Origin: Candidatus Magasanikiibacteriota bacterium
GTDB taxonomy: Bacteria; Patescibacteriota; Patescibacteriia; Magasanikbacterales; GWA2-37-8
Reading direction: 5' to 3'
Length of the DNA stretch: 64,000 nt
Assembly: GCA_041665405.1 (NCBI GenBank)
Contig: JBAYIZ010000006.1
Span: forward strand, 407-64,406
The notes beneath the pieces were generated by a model. The model did no database searches. It saw nothing but the letters and a program-made list of their open reading frames with translations, and was not told the DNA's origin. The stretch's first letter is position 1. Each line of letters starts with the position of its first letter. A program made the position numbers and the translations under genes. This document shows positions 9,555-63,786 of the stretch, piece after piece.

Positions 9555-10769
9555 TTAAAAATTTATAAATTCTTTAAACCTATCTTCAAAAATAGCTTGC
9601 CGTGCCTGACGCATAAGCTCCAACATAAAATGCACATTATGGATGGTAGCCAAACGCAAACCAGTAATTTCTTGTGCTACAAATAAATGGTGTAAATAAG
9701 CGCGAGAATAATTTTTGCAAGTTGAACAAGCGCAGTCTTTACTAATTGGAGAAAAATCTTTGATAAACGCGGAGTTTTTTATATTCAAACGACGTTTCGG
9801 GTCCTCGGCAGTCGTAACAAACAACATACCGTGTCGAGCCAAACGAGTTGGTGCTACACAATCAAACATATCCGCACCACCAGCTACCACTTTGAGCAAA
9901 TCCTCTGGATCCAAACCGACACCCATAGTGTATCGTGGCTTATCTTTTGGTAATAATGGAGTAATCCAATCCAAAATATTTTTGGTAGCTTCCATGTTGT
10001 AGCCAATGCTTTCACCGCCAATTGCGATACCATCAAAATCTAAACTGGCAATATATTTAGCCGATTCTTTGCGCAGATCTTCATGATTGGCACCCTGAAT
10101 AATACCAAATAAAAATTGTTTGTATTCTTTCGGCACTGTCATCCCCGACTTGATCGGGGATCTATCATCACTAGATTCCCGCTTCTGCGGGAATGACAAA
10201 CGCTTATGTTCGTCCACACATCTTTTTGCCCAGCGATGAGTGCGATCCATAGCTTCCTTTGTATATTTATAATCTGCATCATCAGGGGTACATTCATCAA
10301 AAGCCATAATAATATCCGCACCAATCTTGTGTTGGCACAAAGTAGCGGACTCTGGTGTAAAACGATGAGTAGAGCCGTCAATATGAGATTGAAATGTCAC
10401 GCCGTCTTCATCTATTTTTACCAATTTACCTTGATCTTTGGTGTCGCTTTTTTCTTTTTGCAATCCTAATGAAAAAACCTGAAAACCACCAGAATCAGTC
10501 AAAATCGCCCGGTCCCAATTCATAAATTTGTGCAAACCACCAGATTGAGCAACCAAATCTTCACCCGGTCTCAAATGCAAATGATAGTTATTGGCCAAGA
10601 TAATTTTTGGGTCCAAAATAGCTAGGTCGTTTTGATCTAGGGTTTTAACTGTGGCCTGTGTGCCAACTGGCATAAAGACCGGAGTTTCAATATCTCCATG
10701 GTCGGTATGCAAAATACCGGCTCTGGCACCAGTTTTTTTATCTTCGTGGATTAGTTCAAAAAATGACAT
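9555..10769 (-). CDS. tgt: tRNA-guanine transglycosylase (queuine tRNA-ribosyltransferase) carrying a 20-aa in-frame repeat-derived insert
   Basis: Tgt hallmarks are present: TPVFMPVGT, LTDSGGFQV, and the zinc site CxCxxC...H (CACSTCKNYSRAYLHH). Confidence 0.93.
   Translation of the reverse strand: MSFFELIHEDKKTGARAGILHTDHGDIETPVFMPVGTQATVKTLDQNDLAILDPKIILANNYHLHLRPGEDLVAQSGGLHKFMNWDRAILTDSGGFQVFSLGLQKEKSDTKDQGKLVKIDEDGVTFQSHIDGSTHRFTPESATLCQHKIGADIIMAFDECTPDDADYKYTKEAMDRTHRWAKRCVDEHKRLSFPQKRESSDDRSPIKSGMTVPKEYKQFLFGIIQGANHEDLRKESAKYIASLDFDGIAIGGESIGYNMEATKNILDWITPLLPKDKPRYTMGVGLDPEDLLKVVAGGADMFDCVAPTRLARHGMLFVTTAEDPKRRLNIKNSAFIKDFSPISKDCACSTCKNYSRAYLHHLFVAQEITGLRLATIHNVHFMLELMRQARQAIFEDRFKEFINF
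10138..10197. repeat. double-hairpin palindromic mini-element (ATTCCCG family) inside tgt
   Basis: Sequence GTCATCCCCGActtgATCGGGGAT...ATTCCCGCttctGCGGGAATGAC is exactly 60 nt. On the minus strand it is translated as SFPQKRESSDDRSPIKSGMT. Confidence 0.8.
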
Positions 10770-11006
10770 ACTAATTATATTTAAGCCAATACTACGCTAT
10801 TTTGCACAAAAAATCAAGACAAACAAAAAACTTCCTATAAGAAGAAGTTTTTTCTATTCTCATGTCGTTAACAACAACAGGAAAATGGATGCCTGCTTTT
10901 TTGTACCGTGAGCGCAGGCGAATCTCACATATTTTCCTTGCGGCGACTAGCCACGCATTAATCACATGCGCAACTTATCAAGCCGAATTGTGTTGGTACG
11001 GCGCGA

Positions 11007-11420
11007 TCAGCGCGCCTTGGGGGCGGCTGCTTCTCGCAGTTCGGCCAGCTTCCTGTCTACCTTTGGGGTGCCGAGGTGTTGCTTGGCCGCGAACACGAGC
11101 TTTGCGCGGGCAGATTGCACCGCCCTGTTCGAAGGACGACGGCCGGGTGGAGTCAAAGCCACCACCGCCTGCAACATTGCCTCCGTCGTCTGCTCGTCAC
11201 CCTGCTTGTACTCCCTGAGCGTGAACAGGACCTTCTCCACCTTCTCGTGGAGATCCCAGGACTCGCGCCAATACGGCCTGTCTTCGCCGGAATGGAACTT
11301 GTCGAGCATGGAGTGAGCCCTCCTCGACCTGAAGTAGCAAAGGACCAACACAAGCATCGACACGATGTTCACCGCAACACTGATACTGTGCCACATAGAA
11401 ATCCCCACTTCCTTCACCAT
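11007..11420 (-). CDS. small single-pass membrane protein encoded in G+C-rich islet 1
   Basis: The frame has G/C-rich third positions. It has an N-terminal TM segment (ISMWHSISVAVNIVSMLVLVLCYF) and a helical charged tail. The start could be ATG 11420, or ATG 11396 (preceded by AAGGAAGTGG). The track start at 11486 is probably an over-extension. Confidence 0.5.
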   Translation of the reverse strand: MVKEVGISMWHSISVAVNIVSMLVLVLCYFRSRRAHSMLDKFHSGEDRPYWRESWDLHEKVEKVLFTLREYKQGDEQTTEAMLQAVVALTPPGRRPSNRAVQSARAKLVFAAKQHLGTPKVDRKLAELREAAAPKAR

Positions 11421-11571
11421 TGCTGACGAAGATGTTAGCTCTCTAGTTGGCGCGGGATGACACATCCACGCCCTTGCGACAAGCAAGCGGCAGCCCAGCT
11501 ACCTCTACTTTTTCCTTACCAAAAGAAAAACTAGCCGTAGCTTGGCCAAAATATATTTCAAAGAACGTGTA

Positions 11572-11678: not shown

Positions 11679-13715
11679 ATGATAAATTTTGAACAAGAAC
11701 TCAACCCGCAACAGCTGGACGTCGTGAAAAATGGCGACGGGCCTTGTTTGGTTTTAGCTGGGGCGGGATCGGGGAAAACTCGCACTATTACTTATCGGGT
11801 TGCCTATTTGTTGGAACAAGGTGTTGGCCCAGAAAATATTTTGTTGGTAACTTTTACCAATCGAGCGGCGAATGAAATGATTGAACGGGTAAGAAATTTG
11901 ATGAGTGGGGATTCCCGTTTGCACGGGAATGACATGCCGTGGTCAGGAACATTTCACCACATTGCCAATAAAATTTTACGACACTACGCACCACATTTAG
12001 GATACAAAAATAATTTTACTGTTTTGGATTCCGACGACAGCCAGGCGTTGATAAAATTGTGTATCAAAGAATTTAAAACCACCGAAAAATTTCCTTCGGC
12101 GAAAGTTGTGGGCGCAATTATTAGTTTTGCTCGTAATTCTCAAAAAAGTATTGAAGAAGTAATTGAAGATAAATTTAATAGCTGGTGGCACCTGTCTAGA
12201 ACTATTGGCGATGTCAGCTCACGATACGAACAAAAGAAAAAAGAATCCAACGCAATGGATTTTGATGATCTACTAATTAATTTTGCATTGTTATTAAACA
12301 CCCCAGCAATTCAAGAAAAGTTTTCCAATCAATTCAAATATATTTTGGTAGATGAGTATCAAGACACCAACAAACTACAAGCGAATATTATTGATAAATT
12401 AGCCAAAATACACCGTAATTTGTTGGTAGTTGGTGATGACGCCCAAAGTATTTATTCTTTCCGTGCGGCTGATATAAAAAATATTTTAAATTTTGAAGAA
12501 AAATATTCTGATGCGAAAATTTTTCGTTTGGAAATAAATTATCGTTCTCACCAAGAAATTTTGTCTTTGGCCAATAATGTTATCGCCAACAATCGTCATC
12601 AATATCCAAAAAAATTAAAAGCAGTAAAAGAAAATGGCATAAAACCAAATTTATATCCAAAAAATGATCAATCCGACGAAGCGAGTTTTATTGTAAAAAA
12701 AATAAATGAACTGATTGAACAAGGAACTCCAGAACACAAAATCGCTGTGCTGTTTCGTGCCGCTCATCATTCTCAAATGCTCGAAATGGAATTAGCCAAA
12801 GCAGGAATCGCTTATGATTATCGTGGCGGTTTGCGATTTTTTGAACGCGCTCACATCAAAGATGTTTTGAGTTATCTCAGAATATTAAATAATTTATCTG
12901 ACACCTCTGCGTGGTTGCGTATTCTCCAACACGAAGAAGGAATCGGACCGTCGGCTGCCAATAAAATTATTTCTGCCGTGCAAAAACTAGAAAAAATTGA
13001 TGACATAAAAAATCTTGGGGAAGTTTTAGGTGGAAAAACCCAAACCGGTTTTAATAATTTCTTAAAAATTTTTAATGCTCTCTTGGAATCGTATATTCCA
13101 GAAAGCAGCCCTGGTGATTTAATCCAATCCATTATCAGTTCGAATTATAGCGACTATTTGGAAGCAGAATTCATAGATAGTGATGACCGAAAAAAGGATT
13201 TGGAACAAATGGCCACCTTTGCCACCAAACACAAAAATTTATCTGATTTTTTGGCCGAATCTAGTTTGCAAGAGTCGTTTGCCCACCCGACATCCAACCA
13301 AACACAGACAAACAACCAAAAAAGGTTGGTGCTTTCCACTATTCATCAGGCCAAAGGACTGGAGTGGGAAGCGGTTTTTATAATCAATGTAGCCAACGAC
13401 GCCTTTCCCAACAGTCGTGCTTTGGCCGAAAGTGAAGGTCTGGAAGAAGAACGCCGTTTGTTTTATGTCGCTATTACTCGTGCCAAAAAACACTTAATTT
13501 TGACTTATCCAATGTCAAATGAGGGTTGGGGCTCCTCGCTGGGCGGTCCAAGCTTGTTTTTGTCTGAAATTAGCCAAGATTTGATTGATGACCACTCATT
13601 ATTATCCTATAAAAGCACTGTTTTTGATAAAAATGAAGAAATTCAATATATTAACGAAGATGAACCAATAAATATCCAACCTGGTAGTTTTTTGCGCAGT
13701 ATTGATGACTTATAA
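11679..13715 (+). CDS. UvrD/PcrA/Rep-family ATP-dependent DNA helicase
   Basis: Walker A motif (AGAGSGKTRT), motif Ia (TFTNRAANEM), DEYQDT, motif VI (VAITRAKK). Confidence 0.92.
   Translation: MINFEQELNPQQLDVVKNGDGPCLVLAGAGSGKTRTITYRVAYLLEQGVGPENILLVTFTNRAANEMIERVRNLMSGDSRLHGNDMPWSGTFHHIANKILRHYAPHLGYKNNFTVLDSDDSQALIKLCIKEFKTTEKFPSAKVVGAIISFARNSQKSIEEVIEDKFNSWWHLSRTIGDVSSRYEQKKKESNAMDFDDLLINFALLLNTPAIQEKFSNQFKYILVDEYQDTNKLQANIIDKLAKIHRNLLVVGDDAQSIYSFRAADIKNILNFEEKYSDAKIFRLEINYRSHQEILSLANNVIANNRHQYPKKLKAVKENGIKPNLYPKNDQSDEASFIVKKINELIEQGTPEHKIAVLFRAAHHSQMLEMELAKAGIAYDYRGGLRFFERAHIKDVLSYLRILNNLSDTSAWLRILQHEEGIGPSAANKIISAVQKLEKIDDIKNLGEVLGGKTQTGFNNFLKIFNALLESYIPESSPGDLIQSIISSNYSDYLEAEFIDSDDRKKDLEQMATFATKHKNLSDFLAESSLQESFAHPTSNQTQTNNQKRLVLSTIHQAKGLEWEAVFIINVANDAFPNSRALAESEGLEEERRLFYVAITRAKKHLILTYPMSNEGWGSSLGGPSLFLSEISQDLIDDHSLLSYKSTVFDKNEEIQYINEDEPINIQPGSFLRSIDDL
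11911..11933. repeat. ATTCCCG palindromic mini-element inside the helicase gene
   Basis: ATTCCCGTttgcACGGGAATGAC, translated as (G)DSRLHGND between helicase motifs Ia and Ib. Confidence 0.7.
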
Positions 13716-23159: not shown

Positions 23160-23348
23160 CTCCACAAACAAAAACATCCCGACTAAATCGAGATGTTTTA
23201 TTTTTAAAGCGTTTATATCACTCGCACAATCTGAAAACAAATTTTATTTTCAAATTGCGCGGCGAGTGACATCTACCGCGTCTGCCCCACCGCCCGCTTG
23301 TAGCGAGTGGGGCTACGATGGCTAGTCTCTACAAATTAGCCCTTCCAT

Positions 23349-23822
23349 CTAGAAGGTGCCCGCCCCCAAGGCGAGTTGGACCTCCCATCCGAAGGAGTTC
23401 TTCTCCACGACGTCCTGTTGCCAGCCGACAGGGGCTTTCAGGAAAACGCGGGCACGCCACAGCTTCATACTGACCATCGGACCAGCCCCGTACAACAGCC
23501 CGTCGTTGCCCTTCTGTCCAGAAAGGACCCCGCCGAAGTTGAACGTGAGCCCATCAACGATCACGTCATAGGTGACGCCGTAGGCCATGCCGTAGCCCGA
23601 TACTTGGGTCGGAACCCAGAACTGGGCGAAGTGGGTCGTGTGACCATCCGGCTGGACCAAGTAGAGGCCCATGCCGATGTCGGTGCCGTCCTCAAACCCG
23701 GCGTGTTGCACGAACAGGCCGGCCCCACCAGTCTCCGGACCAGGACCCTCAGCCAGGGCGACTGAAGGAACTGCGAAAAGGACGACGCTCACGATGACGA
23801 AAAACCACGCGATGTGCTTCAT
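23349..23822 (-). CDS. secreted small beta-barrel-like (OMP-like) protein encoded in G+C-rich islet 2
   Basis: ATG 23822 is preceded by GGAG at 7 nt. Signal peptide is MKHIAWFFVIVSVVLFAVPSVALA|EG. It has Gly/aromatic-rich alternating strands and a C-terminal ...LALGAGTF. Third codon positions are G/C-rich. The track start at 23957 lies in the AT-rich leader and is probably spurious. Confidence 0.6.
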   Translation of the reverse strand: MKHIAWFFVIVSVVLFAVPSVALAEGPGPETGGAGLFVQHAGFEDGTDIGMGLYLVQPDGHTTHFAQFWVPTQVSGYGMAYGVTYDVIVDGLTFNFGGVLSGQKGNDGLLYGAGPMVSMKLWRARVFLKAPVGWQQDVVEKNSFGWEVQLALGAGTF

Positions 23823-23994
23823 GGATTTACTCCGAAAACTAGAGTTCATCGGTACCCAGCCGACACACCACGCGACAATCATTGTCGAGAGGTAAGGGTG
23901 ATTATTTATTCCTATATACATTAGAAATACATAATTTCCTTTACCTCTTTGAGACATTATTTATCCATTATAATTTAAAAAGAACTAACTGAAC

Positions 23995-25154: not shown

Positions 25155-25240
25155 CAAAGGGTAACTTTTTCGCTTTTTTTGCCCGCGAGGGCAAAAGGAT
25201 GAGCCTCGGCTCATAACCCGCTCAAAAGTAACCCTTTGCT
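25155..25240 (+). ncRNA. candidate structured RNA / terminator-embedded repeat, copy 1
   Basis: Outer stem is GCAAAGGGT.../...ACCCTTTGC. It encloses the conserved core TTTTTCGCTTTTTTTGCCCGCGAGGGCAAAAGGATGAGCCTCGGCTCATAACCCGCTCAAAAG. Related copies are at 38645 and 48340. Confidence 0.5.
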
Positions 25241-35047: not shown

Positions 35048-36172
35048 TTATTGTCTTATCGGCATCACTATATAAACAAAACTGTCGTCGTTGGTTGGTA
35101 CAAAGAGACACGGGCTGTCTGCGTTTATCATTTTCAGCATACTGGTTTCTGATTTAATATTATTTAAACCATCCAAAACATATCGGTGGTTCAACATAAT
35201 AGCATTGTCGTCGCCGTTTGTTTCCGCACTTATTTCAGAACTATATTCACCCGTCTGGGAAGAAGTGGAGGAAAGTTTTACGACGCCTTCTTTACTACTA
35301 ATTATACAAGATATAGCGTTTACACCTATTGTGGTAAACAAACTGGCCATTTTAATTTCTTTACTCATCTTTCCAGTATCAAACATCGCAGATGTTTTGA
35401 ATTCTTTTGGTATAATTTGTGCATAGTCTGGATAATTTCCTTCTACTAAGCGAGAAACTAGTTGAATATTACCGTAGTGCATAGCAATTTGATTCTCTCC
35501 AACTAATATTCTAACGTTTTTTTCTTTTTCTTCATTATCCGCTAACGACAGTATGTGGATTATTTCTTGAGCAGTTCTACCCGGAACAATAATTTTAAAA
35601 TCTCCTTCTCCTTGTTGAATTTTAATTTTCTTTTCAGCCAATCTATAACTATCTGTAGCCGCCAATATTAAACCGGCATAATATGAAGTATTAAATCCAA
35701 AATACATTCCTGATAATTCCGGTCTTATTTCTGATTTAGCCAAAGAGGAAACAGTTTGTCCTAGTCCGCTCTTTAGTTGTTCTGCATCAAACAAAAATCC
35801 ATTTCCATCACTTACAGAAGGAATAACTGGAAATTCGTCAGCTGGTATTCCTTTTATTTTCGTTGATGATTTTCCACAGGTTATAACTAGCTCATTTTCT
35901 TTTAATTCCATTTCAATCTTTTCGTCAGAAAGTAAACTAACAAATTCACTAAGTGTTTTGGAAGGAACTGTAAACGAACCAGATTCATCCACTTTTGATC
36001 TCACGTGAGCAACTATTGCCAATTCTAGATTGGTTGCAATTATTTCTGTTTTTTGATCATCTGCTTTAATCAATATATTTCCCAGTATTGGAAGATTCAC
36101 ATTTTTATTTGCTATCCCTCCTACTATAGAAAGTGCTTTCGATAAATTATCTTTTGTACAAGTTATTTTCAT
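35048..36172 (-). CDS. dnaN: DNA polymerase III beta sliding clamp
   Basis: 374 aa, three-domain clamp pattern, located downstream of dnaA. Confidence 0.92.
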   Translation of the reverse strand: MKITCTKDNLSKALSIVGGIANKNVNLPILGNILIKADDQKTEIIATNLELAIVAHVRSKVDESGSFTVPSKTLSEFVSLLSDEKIEMELKENELVITCGKSSTKIKGIPADEFPVIPSVSDGNGFLFDAEQLKSGLGQTVSSLAKSEIRPELSGMYFGFNTSYYAGLILAATDSYRLAEKKIKIQQGEGDFKIIVPGRTAQEIIHILSLADNEEKEKNVRILVGENQIAMHYGNIQLVSRLVEGNYPDYAQIIPKEFKTSAMFDTGKMSKEIKMASLFTTIGVNAISCIISSKEGVVKLSSTSSQTGEYSSEISAETNGDDNAIMLNHRYVLDGLNNIKSETSMLKMINADSPCLFVPTNDDSFVYIVMPIRQ

Positions 36173-36447: not shown

Positions 36448-37842
36448 TTAGATATTATTGATATATAAACGCTGTCTTATTAATTCTAGTTCTTGTTTTA
36501 GTTTTAAATCATTATCTATTTCTTTGGTAATTTTTTCGTTGGCATGCATCGCTGTGGTGTGATCGCGTCCGCCCAGCTCATCGCCAATGGAAGGGAAAGA
36601 CATTTTAAGATCATTACGCAAAATATACATAATAATCTGGCGAGGATAAGAGAGCTTCTTTTCTCGGCTTTTACCACAAACATTTTCGGTGGAAACATTG
36701 AAAAAGGTGCAAACAGTCTCTATGGTCTGTTGTGATGTGACTGAACGTCTAGCCGAAGCAGAATCAAAACTAGAAAGAATTGATTTTACTGATTCGGCTG
36801 TCGGGGCCATATTTTTTAATTGATGATAAGCAATAATTTTATTTAGGGCGCCTTCAAGCTCACGAATGTTGCTCTGAACAATAGTAGCAACTGTATTTAG
36901 GGTTTTGTCGTCCAAAACAAAATTCTTTTCTTGGCACTTTTTGCCCAAAATAGCGACACGTGTTTCAAAATCAGGGGCAGAAACATCCACAATCATTCCC
37001 CACTCGAAGCGAGATTTGAGGCGATCCTCAAGGGCAGGGATGGCTTTTGGTGGGCGGTCAGAAGTTAAAATTACCTGCTTGTTTGCCTGGTGGAGCTCGT
37101 TAAAAGTATGAAAAAACGATTCTTGGCTGGCATCTTTGCCAGCGATGAACTGAATATCATCAATTAACAAAGCGTCGATAGTACGATAGCGGTTTTGGAA
37201 GTCTCTCGCTCCACCACTACGCAAAGAAGTAATAAAATCGTTGGTAAATTTCTCAGCACTAACATACAAGATATTGGTTTGAGGGTTTTTTTTCAACAAT
37301 TCATTGCCAACCGCCTGTAAAAGATGGGTTTTCCCCAAACCTACACCACCGTAGATAAACAGTGGATTGTAGGCCTCACCAGGACGGTCTGCCACTGCCT
37401 TGGCGGCGGTGAAAGCCAATTCGGAGCCTTTGCCAACCACAAAACTATCAAAATTGTATTTTGGGTTAATGGTAAATCCATGAGAAGCGACAGATTGGTG
37501 ACTAGTTTGTTGAGAGTATGAAGGTGTTTTTTCGTTTTCATGAGATACCGACGGGGAAGGAGGGGTGTTTATTGGTTGTTCCACAACATTTTTGATATTT
37601 TCGATCTTGTATTCCATCCTTCTAATAGGAAGGGCGGTGACCCTCTCTAAAGATTGGATGATTTGGTGGTGGTGTTTTTTTTCAATCCACGCCTGATTAA
37701 AGGTGTTTGGGACGCAGACAATAACATGGCCTTCTTGAAAACTAACAATACCAGTATTTTTGAACCAGGTGTTAAAATTCGCTTTGGAAATGGTTAATTC
37801 TAATTCAGATAAAACAGCCTGCCAAATTTCATTATTAGTCAT
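36448..37842 (-). CDS. dnaA: chromosomal replication initiator DnaA
   Basis: AAA+ Walker A GGVGLGKTHL, a sensor region, and the C-terminal DnaA signature (GGRDHTTAMHA). Confidence 0.96.
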   Translation of the reverse strand: MTNNEIWQAVLSELELTISKANFNTWFKNTGIVSFQEGHVIVCVPNTFNQAWIEKKHHHQIIQSLERVTALPIRRMEYKIENIKNVVEQPINTPPSPSVSHENEKTPSYSQQTSHQSVASHGFTINPKYNFDSFVVGKGSELAFTAAKAVADRPGEAYNPLFIYGGVGLGKTHLLQAVGNELLKKNPQTNILYVSAEKFTNDFITSLRSGGARDFQNRYRTIDALLIDDIQFIAGKDASQESFFHTFNELHQANKQVILTSDRPPKAIPALEDRLKSRFEWGMIVDVSAPDFETRVAILGKKCQEKNFVLDDKTLNTVATIVQSNIRELEGALNKIIAYHQLKNMAPTAESVKSILSSFDSASARRSVTSQQTIETVCTFFNVSTENVCGKSREKKLSYPRQIIMYILRNDLKMSFPSIGDELGGRDHTTAMHANEKITKEIDNDLKLKQELELIRQRLYINNI

Positions 37843-38245: not shown

Positions 38246-38641
38246 ATGTATAGAAAAGAAAACCATTTGACCAAGGTGCGAGATTTCAATCTCGTTTTAA
38301 AACAAGGATATTGGATAAATGATCTGTTTTTTAGTTTAAAAGTATTAGACTTAGCCAAAAAAGAGGCTTATTTTCCACCCAAAGAAGATAAGGATAAGTT
38401 CAAAAAACAGCTTAAGTTAGCGGTGAATGTTGGGTTAAAGGTGTCTAAAAGTGCTGTTGTGCGCAATCGGGCAAAAAGGCAGGTTGTGGAGGTGTTGAGG
38501 GCGATGATGGCCAAAGATGAAATATTGGAAGGGTATTATTTGTTTTTTGTGGCGAAGCCGAATATCAAGGAGAAAAGTTTTGCTGAGATAAGCGATGAAG
38601 TGAAACTATTATTGCAAAAGGCAAACGTGCTAAAGAGGTAA
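38246..38641 (+). CDS. rnpA: ribonuclease P protein component
   Basis: Position after rpmH. The RNR motif context is present (VVRNRAKRQVVEVLR). Confidence 0.85.
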   Translation: MYRKENHLTKVRDFNLVLKQGYWINDLFFSLKVLDLAKKEAYFPPKEDKDKFKKQLKLAVNVGLKVSKSAVVRNRAKRQVVEVLRAMMAKDEILEGYYLFFVAKPNIKEKSFAEISDEVKLLLQKANVLKR

Positions 38642-38644
38642 TTT

Positions 38645-38739
38645 AAAAAACTTTTATTTTATTTCGCTTTTTTTGCCCGCGAGGGCAAAAGGATGAAGCC
38701 GCGGCTTCATAACCCGCTCAATTAAAATAAAAGTTTTTT
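38645..38739 (+). ncRNA. candidate structured RNA / terminator-embedded repeat, copy 2
   Basis: A 17-bp outer stem (AAAAAACTTTTATTTTA/TAAAATAAAAGTTTTTT) encloses the core TTTCGCTTTTTTTGCCCGCGAGGGCAAAAGGATGAAGCCGCGGCTTCATAACCCGCTCAA. Confidence 0.5.
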
Positions 38740-39020: not shown

Positions 39021-39022
39021 TT

Positions 39023-39069
39023 GTCATTCCCGTGAAAGCTTGTCCCCACGAAAGTGGGGACGGGAATCC
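39023..39069. repeat. nested-hairpin palindromic mini-element (ATTCCCG family), intergenic
   Basis: GTCATTCCCGtgaaagcttGTCCCCACgaaaGTGGGGACGGGAATCC lies between the convergent stops of yidD and the DUF167 gene. Confidence 0.75.
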
Positions 39070-39073
39070 GTTC

Positions 39074-44157: not shown

Positions 44158-44271
44158 ATATGTATGATTAAAAATACTTCGCAATATTATCTTAAAACAC
44201 AAAAAAAGTCAATTTTATGGCTGTGGTATTGCTTTTTTGAGGATGTTGGTGTATATTTTTTAAATCCACCC

Positions 44272-44529
44272 GTGGCCAGGTCGTGTTATATAGACACAGC
44301 CTCGGCGACTATAGCGAAAGAGGGGAAACCATGGCGCGAGCCAAACCGGCAACGGACACGTGTTGAGGTACATGTTCGATTCCAGTTCAACCTCAGGCCG
44401 CAACAACGGGCTGAGGAGGCCACGCAGAAGGCCAAGAAGTGGCAGAGGGACAACCCGGGCTGGGGCTGTGATCCCAACCCCACGACGATCGGCAACGGCT
44501 ACGCTACCTTCAGGGCTCGTCGCACCTGA
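44272..44529 (+). pseudogene. G+C-rich islet 3 ORF with unresolved start (possibly frameshifted or a gene fragment)
   Basis: G/C-rich third positions mark this frame from about 44380 to TGA 44527-29 (...QQRAEEATQKAKKWQRDNPGWGCDPNPTTIGNGYATFRARRT). The only SD+ATG (GAGGGG-N6-ATG 44331) is in another frame and stops after 11 codons. The in-frame candidates are GTG 44272, or the AT-rich extension at 44149. Confidence 0.3.
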
Positions 44530-44660
44530 CGACGATCAACCTCTTCGACGCACACCCCCAGTCGAGCACAAGTTGCTCCTGGGGGCGGGGCTTAGATGAA
44601 ATTATCCTTCCTGTCCTAAGTAGAAAAAATATTTTCTTTTTAGGACAAGGATAATTTCTT

Positions 44661-44698: not shown

Positions 44699-44707
44699 GT
44701 GTTTGAG

Positions 44708-44731
44708 GATTCCCGCTTTCGCGGGAATGAC
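44708..44731. repeat. ATTCCCG palindromic mini-element, intergenic
   Basis: GATTCCCGCtttcGCGGGAATGAC, about 20 nt from the hppA stop. Confidence 0.75.
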
Positions 44732-44752
44732 AACACACGAAGAATGGTGTTT

Positions 44753-48339: not shown

Positions 48340-48437
48340 AACATCCCAGACAATGACTTTTTCGCTTTTTTCGACCGCGAGGTCGAAAGGATGAGCCTCG
48401 GCTCATAACCCGCTCAAAAGTAATTGTCTGGGATGTT
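48340..48437 (+). ncRNA. candidate structured RNA / terminator-embedded repeat, copy 3
   Basis: A 15-bp perfect outer stem (AACATCCCAGACAAT/ATTGTCTGGGATGTT) is followed by a T7 run. It encloses the core TTTTTCGCTTTTTTCGACCGCGAGGTCGAAAGGATGAGCCTCGGCTCATAACCCGCTCAAAAG. Confidence 0.55.
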
Positions 48438-48453
48438 TTTTTGTACCATAAAA

Positions 48454-48482
48454 TTGACTTTGTGTTTTTTATCAAGTAAAAT
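48454..48482 (+). promoter_or_regulatory. sigma70-type promoter reading into G+C-rich islet 4
   Basis: TTGACT-17 nt-TAAAAT. The composition switches to G+C-rich about 6 nt downstream. Confidence 0.6.
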
Positions 48483-48576
48483 ATTTTTGTGTCCCAAACG
48501 ACCGACGGTTCGCCGTTCGGTCACAACGACCACTTGCACCGCTCATCGGTGGTGGTCTCGAAAAGGAGAGAGAGCC

Positions 48577-48798
48577 ATGCGTGTGCTTCCCTCGATCCTG
48601 AACCAGAGCCGGAGACGGAGCGACAATTCCGCCGATTGCGGGCAGGTCGCGAGCTCCGAGGCCGACTTCATCCACAGGCAACTGCTCGAGCATGGCTTCT
48701 GCTCGGACATGAAGGAGGGCGCCGTCGGCACCGCCAACATGGTCGGCATCGTCTGTTCGACCGCGGCCGGCCGCGGAGCAGTAGTCCTCCTGGTGTAG
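48577..48798 (+). CDS. 73-aa protein of unknown function encoded in G+C-rich islet 4
   Basis: AAGGAG sits 8 nt before the ATG. By my codon-by-codon read, G/C at codon position 3 is very high in this frame only. Sequence: MRVLPSILNQSRRRSDNSADCGQVASSEADFIHRQLLEHGFCSDMKEGAVGTANMVGIVCSTAAGRGAVVLLV. Confidence 0.55.
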   Translation: MRVLPSILNQSRRRSDNSADCGQVASSEADFIHRQLLEHGFCSDMKEGAVGTANMVGIVCSTAAGRGAVVLLV

Positions 48799-48827
48799 GG
48801 CTCAGCTTCGTACGAGACAACCAGTGC

Positions 48828-48881
48828 GGCCGGACCGGGAGCTCCTTCGGGGGTTTCTGGTCCGGCCGTCGTTTCCTTTTT
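48828..48881 (+). terminator. GC-rich hairpin terminator after the islet 4 ORF
   Basis: GGCCGGACC...GGTCCGGCC (9 bp), followed by gtcgTTTCCTTTTTATT. Confidence 0.55.
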
Positions 48882-48962
48882 ATTATATTTAATACTCAAA
48901 GCGGGTATTTTTTTATTGCTCAAAAAAGGGTTTGCGTGTAAAATAAGAACGAATAATATTTT

Positions 48963-61162: not shown

Positions 61163-61308
61163 GATAACTTCTTGAGCTCAACAAGATGTTGGAGTGAATG
61201 AGCGGTCACTACCAGCCGCGTGACTTTTTGTTTTACCGGTAGTCACAAACCGGATGATCCCAGACCCCTCATCAGCGGACCATTGAATTGTCCTGAAACT
61301 TTGCACCT

Positions 61309-61707
61309 CTACGCCTGTTCGCGACAGGGCAGGCATTCGTAGCCCACCCAAAGGCCGTTGGCAAAGGTGAAGTCGAAGTCCCAGCGGTTGTCACCACCGT
61401 ACCAGCAGAGGCTGGCAGTGTATTTGAATCCATTGGGGGCGAGAAGAGTGGTGCCAGTGAGCACGATCTTCTTCTTACGCATTTTCATCGGAATCTGGTC
61501 TTGGTGGTCAAGCAGTTGCTGGCCGTCACGCACTCCAAGGACGCCATTCCGACGACGTGCGCGTTCGCGCAATTCGGAGCCCTTGATGCATTCCTCGCCA
61601 CGCTTGAGGCACGACTCGATCCGGAGCTTGTTGATGTGAAGATCTGCAATTGGATCACAGTCTTCCACAACCTTAAACTCCACCCTGTTCCAAACGAATG
61701 TATTCAC
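61309..61707 (-). CDS. 132-aa cytoplasmic protein of unknown function encoded in G+C-rich islet 5
   Basis: The GTG start is preceded by AAGGAGG at 6 nt. The frame is open across the whole G+C-rich segment. No signal peptide and no family recognised. Confidence 0.6.
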   Translation of the reverse strand: MNTFVWNRVEFKVVEDCDPIADLHINKLRIESCLKRGEECIKGSELRERARRRNGVLGVRDGQQLLDHQDQIPMKMRKKKIVLTGTTLLAPNGFKYTASLCWYGGDNRWDFDFTFANGLWVGYECLPCREQA

Positions 61708-61775
61708 CTTTCACCTCCTTGCGGTTCTGACAGGTTGGTTGCTCTGAAGAGAGCAATTGTTGTTAACAACTCAAT

Positions 61776-63075: not shown

Positions 63076-63168
63076 ATTACTTCTTGAACCAAAATGATTT
63101 AGTTCGAAAAGTAGCTGCGCGTCTTTTTGACCGGGACGCGCAACCGGGTGAGAGGGTGGAACCGGACG

Positions 63169-63660
63169 TCACAGGAATGCGATTCCCAGTGACGGCTGGA
63201 ACAGCAACGAGTAATCGCCGCCATCCAGGGTCTTCGCCAGTCCAAATGCCATGGACAGCGACAGACCGTTTCCGATTCCGTAGGCCAGGCCGGTGCCCAG
63301 ACCAACCAAGTCGGAAGACGGCTTGCCGCCGTAACCGACATTGCGCTGGTAGAGCACGCTGGCCTGGGTGGACCAACGATCAGTCAGTCCCAGCGACACA
63401 CCTGCAGAGAGGCGTGGGCTGGGCTTGCAACTGTCGTTGGGGGTGGCCAGCCCGATTCCGCCCGCGATGGACACCTTGTTGGAGACCTTCTCCGACAGCG
63501 AGATGTCGTAGCGGGTGGAGGCCGAGGCGGGGGTGAGCCCGTCCTTCAGGAGGACGACGTAGCCCTCCCGGATGTTGAAGACCGGGGTCAGGGCGCTGGC
63601 CGAAGCCGAGACACCGCTCAGAACCACGGCCACCAGGACGATCAGGGTGGAGATCTTCAT
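63169..63660 (-). CDS. secreted small beta-barrel-like (OMP-like) protein encoded in G+C-rich islet 6
   Basis: GAGGTG lies 4 nt before the ATG. Signal peptide is MKISTLIVLVAVVLSGVSASASA|L. The protein has Gly-rich alternating strands and a C-terminal ...QPSLGIAFL. Confidence 0.6.
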   Translation of the reverse strand: MKISTLIVLVAVVLSGVSASASALTPVFNIREGYVVLLKDGLTPASASTRYDISLSEKVSNKVSIAGGIGLATPNDSCKPSPRLSAGVSLGLTDRWSTQASVLYQRNVGYGGKPSSDLVGLGTGLAYGIGNGLSLSMAFGLAKTLDGGDYSLLFQPSLGIAFL

Positions 63661-63736
63661 GGGACACCTCTGCAGACCAGAAGGCCTGCCATCTGCATTA
63701 GTCAGTCAGGTTGCATTTGCGAACCCATACTGCTTT

Positions 63737-63786
63737 TGCCAGACGAAATAGTTCACAATAGATCTTATGGACTATTTCGTCTGGCA
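63737..63786 (-). promoter_or_regulatory. 16-bp perfect hairpin in the 5' leader of the islet 6 gene
   Basis: TGCCAGACGAAATAGT-N18-ACTATTTCGTCTGGCA lies between the promoter (63829-57) and the ATG (63660). No T-run follows it. Confidence 0.5.

Follow-up and report, generated by a model that had tools for sequence, protein, structure and literature searches.

A short palindromic repeat lying in frame within a gene for a PcrA/UvrD-type superfamily 1 (SF1) helicase was analysed in a 64,000-nt stretch of contig JBAYIZ010000006.1 from a Candidatus Magasanikiibacteriota bacterium. The whole of this stretch is referred to as the window, and together with extensions past both of its ends 77.4 kb of the 97.6-kb contig were covered. 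The gene, the repeat unit and the loop that carries it were mapped as follows, with the basis of each assignment in brackets.

11679..13715, plus strand: PcrA/UvrD-type SF1 helicase gene, 678 aa, with the repeat in frame (open reading frame, homologues, Pfam, PcrA structure 1PJR)
11907..11934, minus strand: solo unit assigned to the CGTC-1 class of repetitive extragenic palindromes (REPs) and to the Ssn-related motif, SRM (sequence, SRM pattern match, hairpin)
11901..11942, plus strand: codons 75-88 (MSGDSRLHGNDMPW), the coil that carries the repeat, with a net gain of 5 aa or 15 nt (AlphaFold2, orthologue loops, DNA alignment)

The open reading frame (ORF) is 100% identical to a protein from a Candidatus Magasanikbacteria metagenome-assembled genome (MAG), encoded on a 97.6-kb contig. 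It contains the Pfam domains UvrD-helicase and UvrD_C and aligned to PcrA (1PJR) with an E-value of 1.4e-114. On the plus strand positions 11910-11934 read G-ATTCCCGT-ttgc-ACGGGAAT-GACA, preceded by ...gagtggg and followed by tgccg... (11907-11939). The initial annotation had described a single-hairpin copy of a repeat inside a UvrD/PcrA-like helicase that is translated as GDSRLHGND. Both the copy (11910-11934) and the translation, which corresponds to codons 77-85 (G77-D85), were confirmed.

The repeat had further been placed in a variable loop between motif Ia (TFTNRAANEM) and the GTFHH motif, and an alignment with helicase orthologues had been proposed. For this purpose 120 helicase homologues of 54-100% identity were aligned and the spacing was measured from TFTN(K/R)A to GTFH(H/S). 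The two motifs are 37 aa apart in the window helicase as compared to 32 aa in 92 of the 120 orthologues, and the loop is thus not of normal length. Where the closest insert-free relatives read L-T-G-T-E-x-P-L-P-W, the window helicase reads L-M-S-G-D-S-R-L-H-G-N-D-M-P-W. Alignment with PcrA 1PJR resulted in a net five-residue gap in the loop, made up of 4+1 positions facing RLHG and M. At the level of DNA, 18 nt in the orthologues are replaced by 33 nt, meaning that a 25-nt unit is present and that roughly 10 nt of the ancestral loop are gone. The stretch is established as an insertion relative to orthologues.

The location of the insert was investigated employing an AlphaFold2 model of the helicase (65 sequences, mean predicted local distance difference test score, pLDDT, of 85.5). 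Residues 75-88 were modelled as a coil between helix 61-74, which follows motif Ia, and strand 89-90 of GTFHH. Across these residues pLDDT drops to 76-78, as opposed to 87-96 in the flanks. According to the model, the loop carrying the repeat is a surface coil of helicase domain 1A.

Identity of the repeat unit and its copies on the contig

The minus-strand sequence of the helicase copy is TGTC-ATTCCCGT-GCAA-ACGGGAAT-CCCC. It consists of the head TGTC (11934-11931), the stem ATTCCCGT (11930-11923), the loop GCAA (11922-11919), the second stem arm ACGGGAAT (11918-11911) and the tail CCCC (11910-11907). The 8-bp stem is without mismatch, starts with A and T and encloses a loop of 4 nt. Upon DNA folding this hairpin was the centroid structure at -7.7 kcal/mol, and its 53-nt DNA context folded with a z-score of -2.5 against shuffles, as the family predicts. 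The RNA fold of the region was no better than shuffles (z = -1.3), no T-run was found 3' of the hairpin and Rfam returned just two tRNAs in the window. A terminator or structured-RNA reading was dropped on these grounds. Five of the six reading frames of the unit contain no stop codon.

These features were compared with published repeats. In the published definition of CGTC-1 REPs (Di Nocera et al. 2013, BMC Genomics 14:522; PMC3733652), an unpaired CGTC, TGTC or CCTC head directly precedes a stem of 8 bp that opens with AT; the loop measures 4 nt, and the short unpaired 3' tail resembles CCA. The class has been equated with Neisseria dRS3 and Rickettsia RPE-6, and CGTC REPs occur mostly as head-to-head dimers, with some solo units, and have no associated transposase gene (PMC3733652). 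The Neisseria repeat was redefined in 2025 as the 28-nt NTS, CGTCATTCCCGCGMAVGCGGGAATCYRG (Nat Commun 2025; PMC11893778), and the wider SRM pattern is given as HGTCWYN(0-2)YYVSBRHN(0-5)WNVSBRGN(0-2)RNCYNB (PMC11893778). The helicase copy is an exact match to the SRM pattern at 11907-11934 on the minus strand and contains an exact dRS3 (ATTCCC-N8-GGGAAT) at 11911-11930. Of the positions flanking the stem, the GTC on its upstream side and the C that directly follows it are both intact. The tail CCC(C) agrees with the CGTC-1 consensus CCA at its first two positions and differs at the third. By its sequence the palindrome is therefore assigned to the CGTC-tagged REP superfamily, as a solo unit of class CGTC-1, which comprises dRS3/NTS, SRM and Rickettsia RPE-6, and this family identity is firm. 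Members of this family have an orientation and fold into a hairpin as single-stranded DNA.

The resemblance to CGTC-1 REPs extends beyond the TGTC head, AT stem, 4-nt loop and C-rich tail to the co-occurrence of dimers and solo units, to in-frame copies in a repair-type gene and to the lack of an adjacent transposase. Intragenic CGTC and GTAG REPs have been published in UvrD/REP helicase, uvrABC, polA, dnaE2 and recBCD genes, with supplementary UvrD examples at aa 278-288 and 914-923 (PMC3733652). The present case differs from the published UvrD cases in its position within the protein and in the tail, CCC instead of CCA. It also differs in its host, which belongs to the candidate phyla radiation (CPR, Patescibacteria), whereas CGTC-1 has been reported from Proteobacteria, Chlorobi, Bacteroidetes, Spirochaetes and Thermotogae. 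With Neisseria dRS3/NTS-SRM the copy shares the exact dRS3 and SRM matches, the GTC head and the C that follows the palindrome, and in both the repeat flanks ssnA-type genes, here in the examined loci, one CPR genome among them. A word search indicated that intragenic copies are not discussed in the Ssn paper (PMC11893778).

Other systems are more distant. As in Rickettsia palindromic elements (RPEs), a palindromic repeat lies in frame in a housekeeping gene, is translated and is absent from most orthologues (92/120), and according to reviews RPE peptides are predicted to fit in with the fold and function of the protein. Classical RPEs, however, are about 150 bp long with a conserved peptide, per review, while the unit here is 25-28 nt and adds a net five residues. 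GTAG REPs and REPINs are likewise short oriented hairpins in inverted doublets, with a single-copy gene flanked by repeats in some genomes, but in the REPIN-RAYT system the head is GTAG and not TGTC, and the associated protein is a Y1 (HUH) transposase and not a GIY-YIG nuclease. Bacterial MITEs (miniature transposable elements with inverted repeats; for example Correia/NEMIS, ERIC) are also non-coding, multi-copy and bounded by inverted ends, and can fuse in frame with genes. They span 70-300 bp, in contrast to the solo unit of 28 nt and the dimer of 62 nt found here, which have no target-site duplication and no known parent insertion sequence.

The palindrome pattern with up to two mismatches gave three matches in the window against 0.01 expected, and in the 77.4 kb the SRM pattern matched three times, where first-order Markov simulations of the contig gave 0.12. 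All copies found by the palindrome pattern share the asymmetric frame G-ATTCCCGY-N4-RCGGGAAT-GACA. In total the 77.4 kb hold five units at four places, one of these being a head-to-head dimer. Besides the helicase copy the places are the following.

9555..10769, minus strand: tRNA-guanine transglycosylase gene (tgt) with the dimer (ORF, Pfam TGT, insert-free orthologue)
10137..10198, no strand assigned: head-to-head dimer of the same superfamily, heads outward, 62 nt, inside tgt (sequence, orthologue comparison)
39022..39070, plus strand: intergenic unit TGTC-ATTCCCGT...ACGGGAAT-CC with a nested second hairpin (sequence)
44705..44732, minus strand: intergenic solo unit TGTC-ATTCCCGC-GAAA-GCGGGAAT-CCTC (sequence)

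The dimer in tgt reads TGTC-ATCCCCGA-cttga-TCGGGGAT, followed by a 12-nt spacer and G and then by ATTCCCGC-ttct-GCGGGAAT-GACA. It amounts to a 20-aa addition to Tgt relative to an insert-free orthologue of 78% identity. The helicase copy had been regarded in the initial annotation as a second in-frame case in an essential-type gene; it is indeed a second intragenic case beside the tgt dimer, while the label essential-type is loose for tgt. The tgt site was also observed to be recurrent. In an 80%-identical lineage (L002) it holds a different CGTC-superfamily unit (GGATTCC...CGGAATGACA, peptide ...GLGMTHP, at about 540-700 on the minus strand), and in a further lineage (L003) it holds none. The 39022-39070 unit carries the perfect hairpin GTCCCCAC-gaaa-GTGGGGAC in its loop and appears to be one repeat inserted into another. 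The 44705-44732 unit is placed between the genes for trigger factor and H+-pyrophosphatase.

Recurrent inserts at the helicase loop

The loop proved variable within the family, in agreement with the initial annotation. Inserts, defined as more than 33 aa between the two motifs, were observed in 23 of the 120 orthologues, and ten of the 23 proteins, the window helicase included, end the insert in [GRQ]-N-D, the residues encoded by ..GGAATGAC. At least ten of the inserts come from the CGTC superfamily. In five insert-bearers (L002, L003, L126, L127 and L128) the DNA shows CGTC-superfamily units ending in ..AATGACA, of which that of L002 is a solo unit and the remainder are dimers of several stem types. 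Insert-bearing proteins were frequently found next to insert-free ones at high identity, namely in the pairs P0054/P0039 (95%), P0084/P0100 (93%), P0092/P0099 (97%), P0060/P0021 (92%) and P0006/P0003 (91%). In a neighbour-joining tree P0006 grouped with the insert-free P0003 and P0004 in essentially all of 200 bootstrap replicates, and P0001 and P0002 branched earlier than this group. Recurrence at the site is firm. Judged from these sequences the site has been filled, and perhaps emptied, many times, since insert-bearers are closely related to insert-free proteins and P0006 is nested among the insert-free P0003 and P0004.

A single ancestral insertion into the loop, the content of which was later swapped by recombination with other REP copies and precisely lost in some lineages, was considered as an alternative and is unlikely. 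It is favoured by P0001 and P0002 being successive basal branches that both read LMS at the left junction. It is also favoured by the head-end frame, which is constant (AAT GAC, translated as N-D) in every REP-derived helicase-loop insert; the tgt site behaves likewise, with a G-M-T frame in the window and in L002. The canonical 32-aa loop (L-T-G-x-x-x-x-L-P-W) is, however, common to ingroup and outgroup, so that a single insertion would need exact losses repeated many times. In addition, insert-bearers adjoin insert-free proteins at 90-97% identity in at least six separate parts of the family, and the types of insert and their junctions vary, the distance from GACA to the P-W codons being 2 to 20 nt.

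The constant right-end frame could also be accounted for by targeting of the pcrA position, for which homing or a microhomology with TGACA in the Leu-Thr codons would be responsible. The insert-free L001 site (CTGACAGG) contains the terminal TGACA of the element, and in L127 the Leu (CTG) and Thr (ACG) codons are separated precisely by the insert. An excess of REPs in genes for DNA synthesis and repair has also been published and was left unexplained (PMC3733652). On the other hand, the insert-free tgt site of L003 has neither TGAC nor GTCA, and the idea of a TGACA target was dropped as a general rule because this site does not fit it. Helicase junctions vary at the nucleotide level, repeat-derived inserts are found at other coil positions of the same helicase and the published UvrD cases are located elsewhere in the protein. 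Targeting is on balance very unlikely.

Over the whole helicase, 21 of 27 alignment-defined insertion positions fall in coil, as taken from the AlphaFold2 model, compared to 44% expected (binomial p = 4e-4, the positions being partly non-independent). Repeat-like inserts were observed at about a dozen coil positions of CPR PcrA and belong to several other families besides CGTC. The peptides derived from these other repeats include CHPERSEGSL.., RAEP..SKDPL..GIPPLA..LGRNDx, CHSE(R/Q)SEESLSQ.. and ..GGPASGG. They lie chiefly after residues 436-448, 469-471 and 539-543 of the query helicase, and bearers include P0043, P0046, P0054, P0055, P0060, P0074, P0080 and P0116.

Occurrence in public genomes and genomic neighbourhood

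A search of GTDB species genomes for the exact 25-nt frame GATTCCCGYNNNNRCGGGAATGACA listed more than 120 stretches that contain it, compared to roughly 0.07 chance matches estimated for random sequence with uniform bases. The hosts listed are Proteobacteria, Bacteroidota, Planctomycetota, Chloroflexota, Nitrospirota, Cyanobacteria, Omnitrophota, many CPR lineages and one Nanoarchaeota MAG. That the palindrome is a coincidence, as the initial annotation had allowed for, or an assembly artefact has a practically negligible probability. Nothing but its short length speaks for chance, and this is outweighed by the strong enrichment in the window and the contig as well as by the public matches; as regards an artefact, the same unit is present at the same site in the independent assembly L002.

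Among the 154 matches listed the free innermost stem pair covaries (CG 136, TA 15, TG 2, CA 1). The T·A pair of the helicase copy is a regular subtype, as TA recurs among these matches. Their head-strand loops are GAAA, GAAG, GCAG and similar. An inverted partner was present upstream in 57-87 of the 154 units. The 57 upstream partner units that lie outside the search constraint display 18 different 8-bp stems, all of them perfectly paired, which is strong evidence of selection on the hairpin itself in the family. The heads of these partners are TGTC (42) or CGTC (14) and their tails are mostly CCAG, with some CCAT.

Intragenic units, called by a crude long-ORF criterion, made up 6 of 18 listed matches in CPR as compared to 11 of 136 elsewhere (Fisher p = 0.006). 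The frame used in the helicase, DSR[LF]RGND, is the commonest encoded peptide among the genic matches listed and occurs in unrelated genes and phyla. This bears on the view that the helicase surface was adaptively altered by gaining five residues, a view suggested by the intact ORF and by the position of the insert on a surface coil of domain 1A. Neighbouring lineages have unrelated peptides or none at the site. An adaptive role is extremely unlikely, since the palindrome in the DNA determines the peptide and since relatives differ or lack the insert.

The family is linked to a nuclease of the single-domain GIY-YIG type (cd10448). SsnA, a 94-aa GIY-YIG protein, binds and cuts the NTS solely as single-stranded DNA and solely on the head strand (PMC11893778). 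Cleavage needs three bases upstream of the stem and binding needs the C right after the stem, while the loop is dispensable, and ssnA genes are typically flanked by the repeat (PMC11893778). The 2013 study found no transposase (PMC3733652), and the protein described in 2025 is a nuclease, not a transposase (PMC11893778). Among the loci examined, SsnA-type GIY-YIG ORFs (92-97 aa, Pfam GIY-YIG) were present in six (L018, L061, L063, L077, L118 and L122), and the exact pattern directly adjoins the gene in five of these, L063 being the exception. A profile search with SsnA-type proteins returned one named CPR match, from Ca. Doudnabacteria, with the following feature.

L129 3972-4332, heads outward: SRM-ssnA-SRM cassette, with a 96-aa ssnA-type gene between grpE and dnaK

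This gene is flanked by TGTCATCCCCGCGCAGGCGGGGATCCAC on one side and by GGATTCCCGA-N16-TCGGGAATGACA on the other. Compared on sequence, head-to-head dimers such as that in tgt would resemble an SRM-ssnA-SRM cassette minus the gene. Small GIY-YIG genes (81-84 aa) were also observed between copies of a tRNA 5' part in Moraniibacteriota and Paceibacterota (L099 1840-2250 and L120 4090-4529). In L099 the second tRNA 5' part runs on into an apparently complete tRNA, and the L120 locus stops after 20 nt. These genes were rejected as ssnA: they belong to another type, adjoin duplicated 5' halves of a tRNA and have no repeat on their flanks. The loci have the look of a small mobile cassette with tRNA genes as its target.

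In light of this link the helicase hairpin could be a functional cis element, either a single-stranded DNA site at which an Ssn nuclease limits gene replacement by transformation or a control of expression at the mRNA level. The stem is perfect and carries a compensated T·A variant, the GTC head and 3' C needed by SsnA are intact, NTS repeats lower the integration of transforming DNA in Neisseria (PMC11893778), and type IV pilus or type II secretion system (T2SS)-type genes lie directly downstream of the helicase gene. Most close orthologues are nevertheless insert-free, and the T·A variant, being a common subtype of the family, need not have originated in place. Neither the RNA fold nor the region 3' of the hairpin points to expression control, and a motif search of the window and both extensions found no ssnA-like or GIY-YIG gene. 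A cis function is accordingly considered highly improbable. Among the genes called past the window ends no Y1 transposase (RAYT) was found; inside the window no systematic scan for one was made.

The surroundings of the repeat contain six islands of 400-650 bp with a GC content of at least 52% in a contig of about 37% GC, mutually dissimilar and located as follows.

10901-11501: GC-rich island
23251-23901: GC-rich island
44251-44651: GC-rich island
48451-48951: GC-rich island
61201-61751: GC-rich island
63101-63751: GC-rich island

Above curated cut-offs their ORFs had no counterpart in Pfam, PADLOC or NCBIfam, and for the first island Rfam gave nothing convincing. This island fills the spacer between tgt and the helicase gene, which is 72 bp in L003 and holds three accessory genes, one of them AbiEii, in L002. 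A link of the repeat to it was rejected as no repeat units lie at its borders. The third island ends 54 nt from the repeat unit at 44705-44732.

Identical 20-nt hairpins (TTTTGCCC-gcga-GGGCAAAA) were observed at 25177-25196 and 38671-38690, about 30 nt past the ends of two ORFs, and a similar one (TTTCGACC-gcga-GGTCGAAA) at 48369-48388. These are terminator-like and may constitute a second small repeat family. The genes dnaN (35048-36172, minus strand), dnaA (36448-37842, minus strand) and rnpA (38246-38641, plus strand) are clustered, and the cumulative GC skew has its minimum at about 36 kb. A probable location of the replication origin is about 37.9-38.2 kb, in which case the helicase and pilus-type genes (11.7-34 kb, plus strand) would be transcribed head-on to replication. 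A 331-aa ORF with a weak LAGLIDADG_3 match lies 340 nt beyond the left end of the window (L124 13725-14720).

Retention of the repeat and its meaning

The helicase insert is probably a selfish or relic CGTC-1 repeat that is retained because the PcrA/UvrD surface loop tolerates it and that has no role in the helicase. One unit would have reached DNA encoding the surface coil that joins the helix following motif Ia to the strand of GTFHH, arriving either as a solo unit or as the remnant of a dimer. The gene would have remained open with five extra residues (…SGDSRLHGNDM…), because stops are absent from five of the unit's six frames and the net change is 15 nt. Insertions at other positions would have been removed by selection, and the copy would persist because the loop accepts insertions rather than because the helicase requires the repeat. 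The bias towards lengths divisible by three that was suspected in the initial annotation is then simply survivorship in intact genes.

Several observations weigh against this explanation. The helicase copy has five mismatches to the strict NTS consensus, at positions 1, 12, 17, 27 and 28; of these 12 and 17 form a compensated stem pair and the last two are in the tail. With strict membership set at no more than one mismatch to CGTCATTCCCGCGMAVGCGGGAATCYRG the copy lies outside the NTS proper. The family is small here, with five units at four places in 77 kb, and its low copy number and the lack of ssnA in this stretch also set it apart from the Neisseria repeat. Target-site duplications are absent at all four places on the contig, and no clean empty-site junction was found for the helicase insert in the DNA of orthologues. 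The insertion event is not reconstructable because about 10 nt of the ancestral loop were lost with the insert, and from sequence comparison gain is not strictly separable from loss or from the replacement of an older insert. The insert would be neutral for the helicase as judged from variability among relatives. The helicase copy could still be a working nuclease site in this organism if its genome encodes an Ssn homologue, none of which was found in the 77.4 kb.

Should CGTC/SRM repeats instead be specifically drawn to, or retained at, this pcrA codon position and a few other CPR sites, which is scarcely probable, one example would be a head-strand hairpin within core genes by which a nuclease of Ssn type could get hold of single-stranded DNA that is entering the cell or being replicated. 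Recurrent inserts in the same frame would then signify a function or a homing mechanism, beyond tolerance.

The repeat family and its in-frame presence in repair genes, including those of UvrD/Rep-type helicases, are already known. New are the CPR host, the higher intragenic share in CPR and the PcrA loop between motifs Ia and Ib as a repeatedly used site. A search of the available literature found no paper on REPs in Patescibacteria, and searches by encoded peptides (VIPAKAGIQ, DSRFRGND and others) and for in-frame palindromes in CPR returned nothing relevant.

Nothing suggests a change in the function of the helicase. The results explain odd peptides in CPR proteins, such as DSRLRGND, VIPAKAGIQ and HSREGGNP, as repeat-derived loop inserts and not as lineage-specific functional motifs. 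The CGTC / dRS3 / NTS-SRM family, together with at least one SRM-ssnA-SRM cassette, is now extended to Patescibacteria, and the PcrA loop between motifs Ia and Ib, repeatedly filled in some and emptied in other close relatives, is a handy natural marker of repeat movement.

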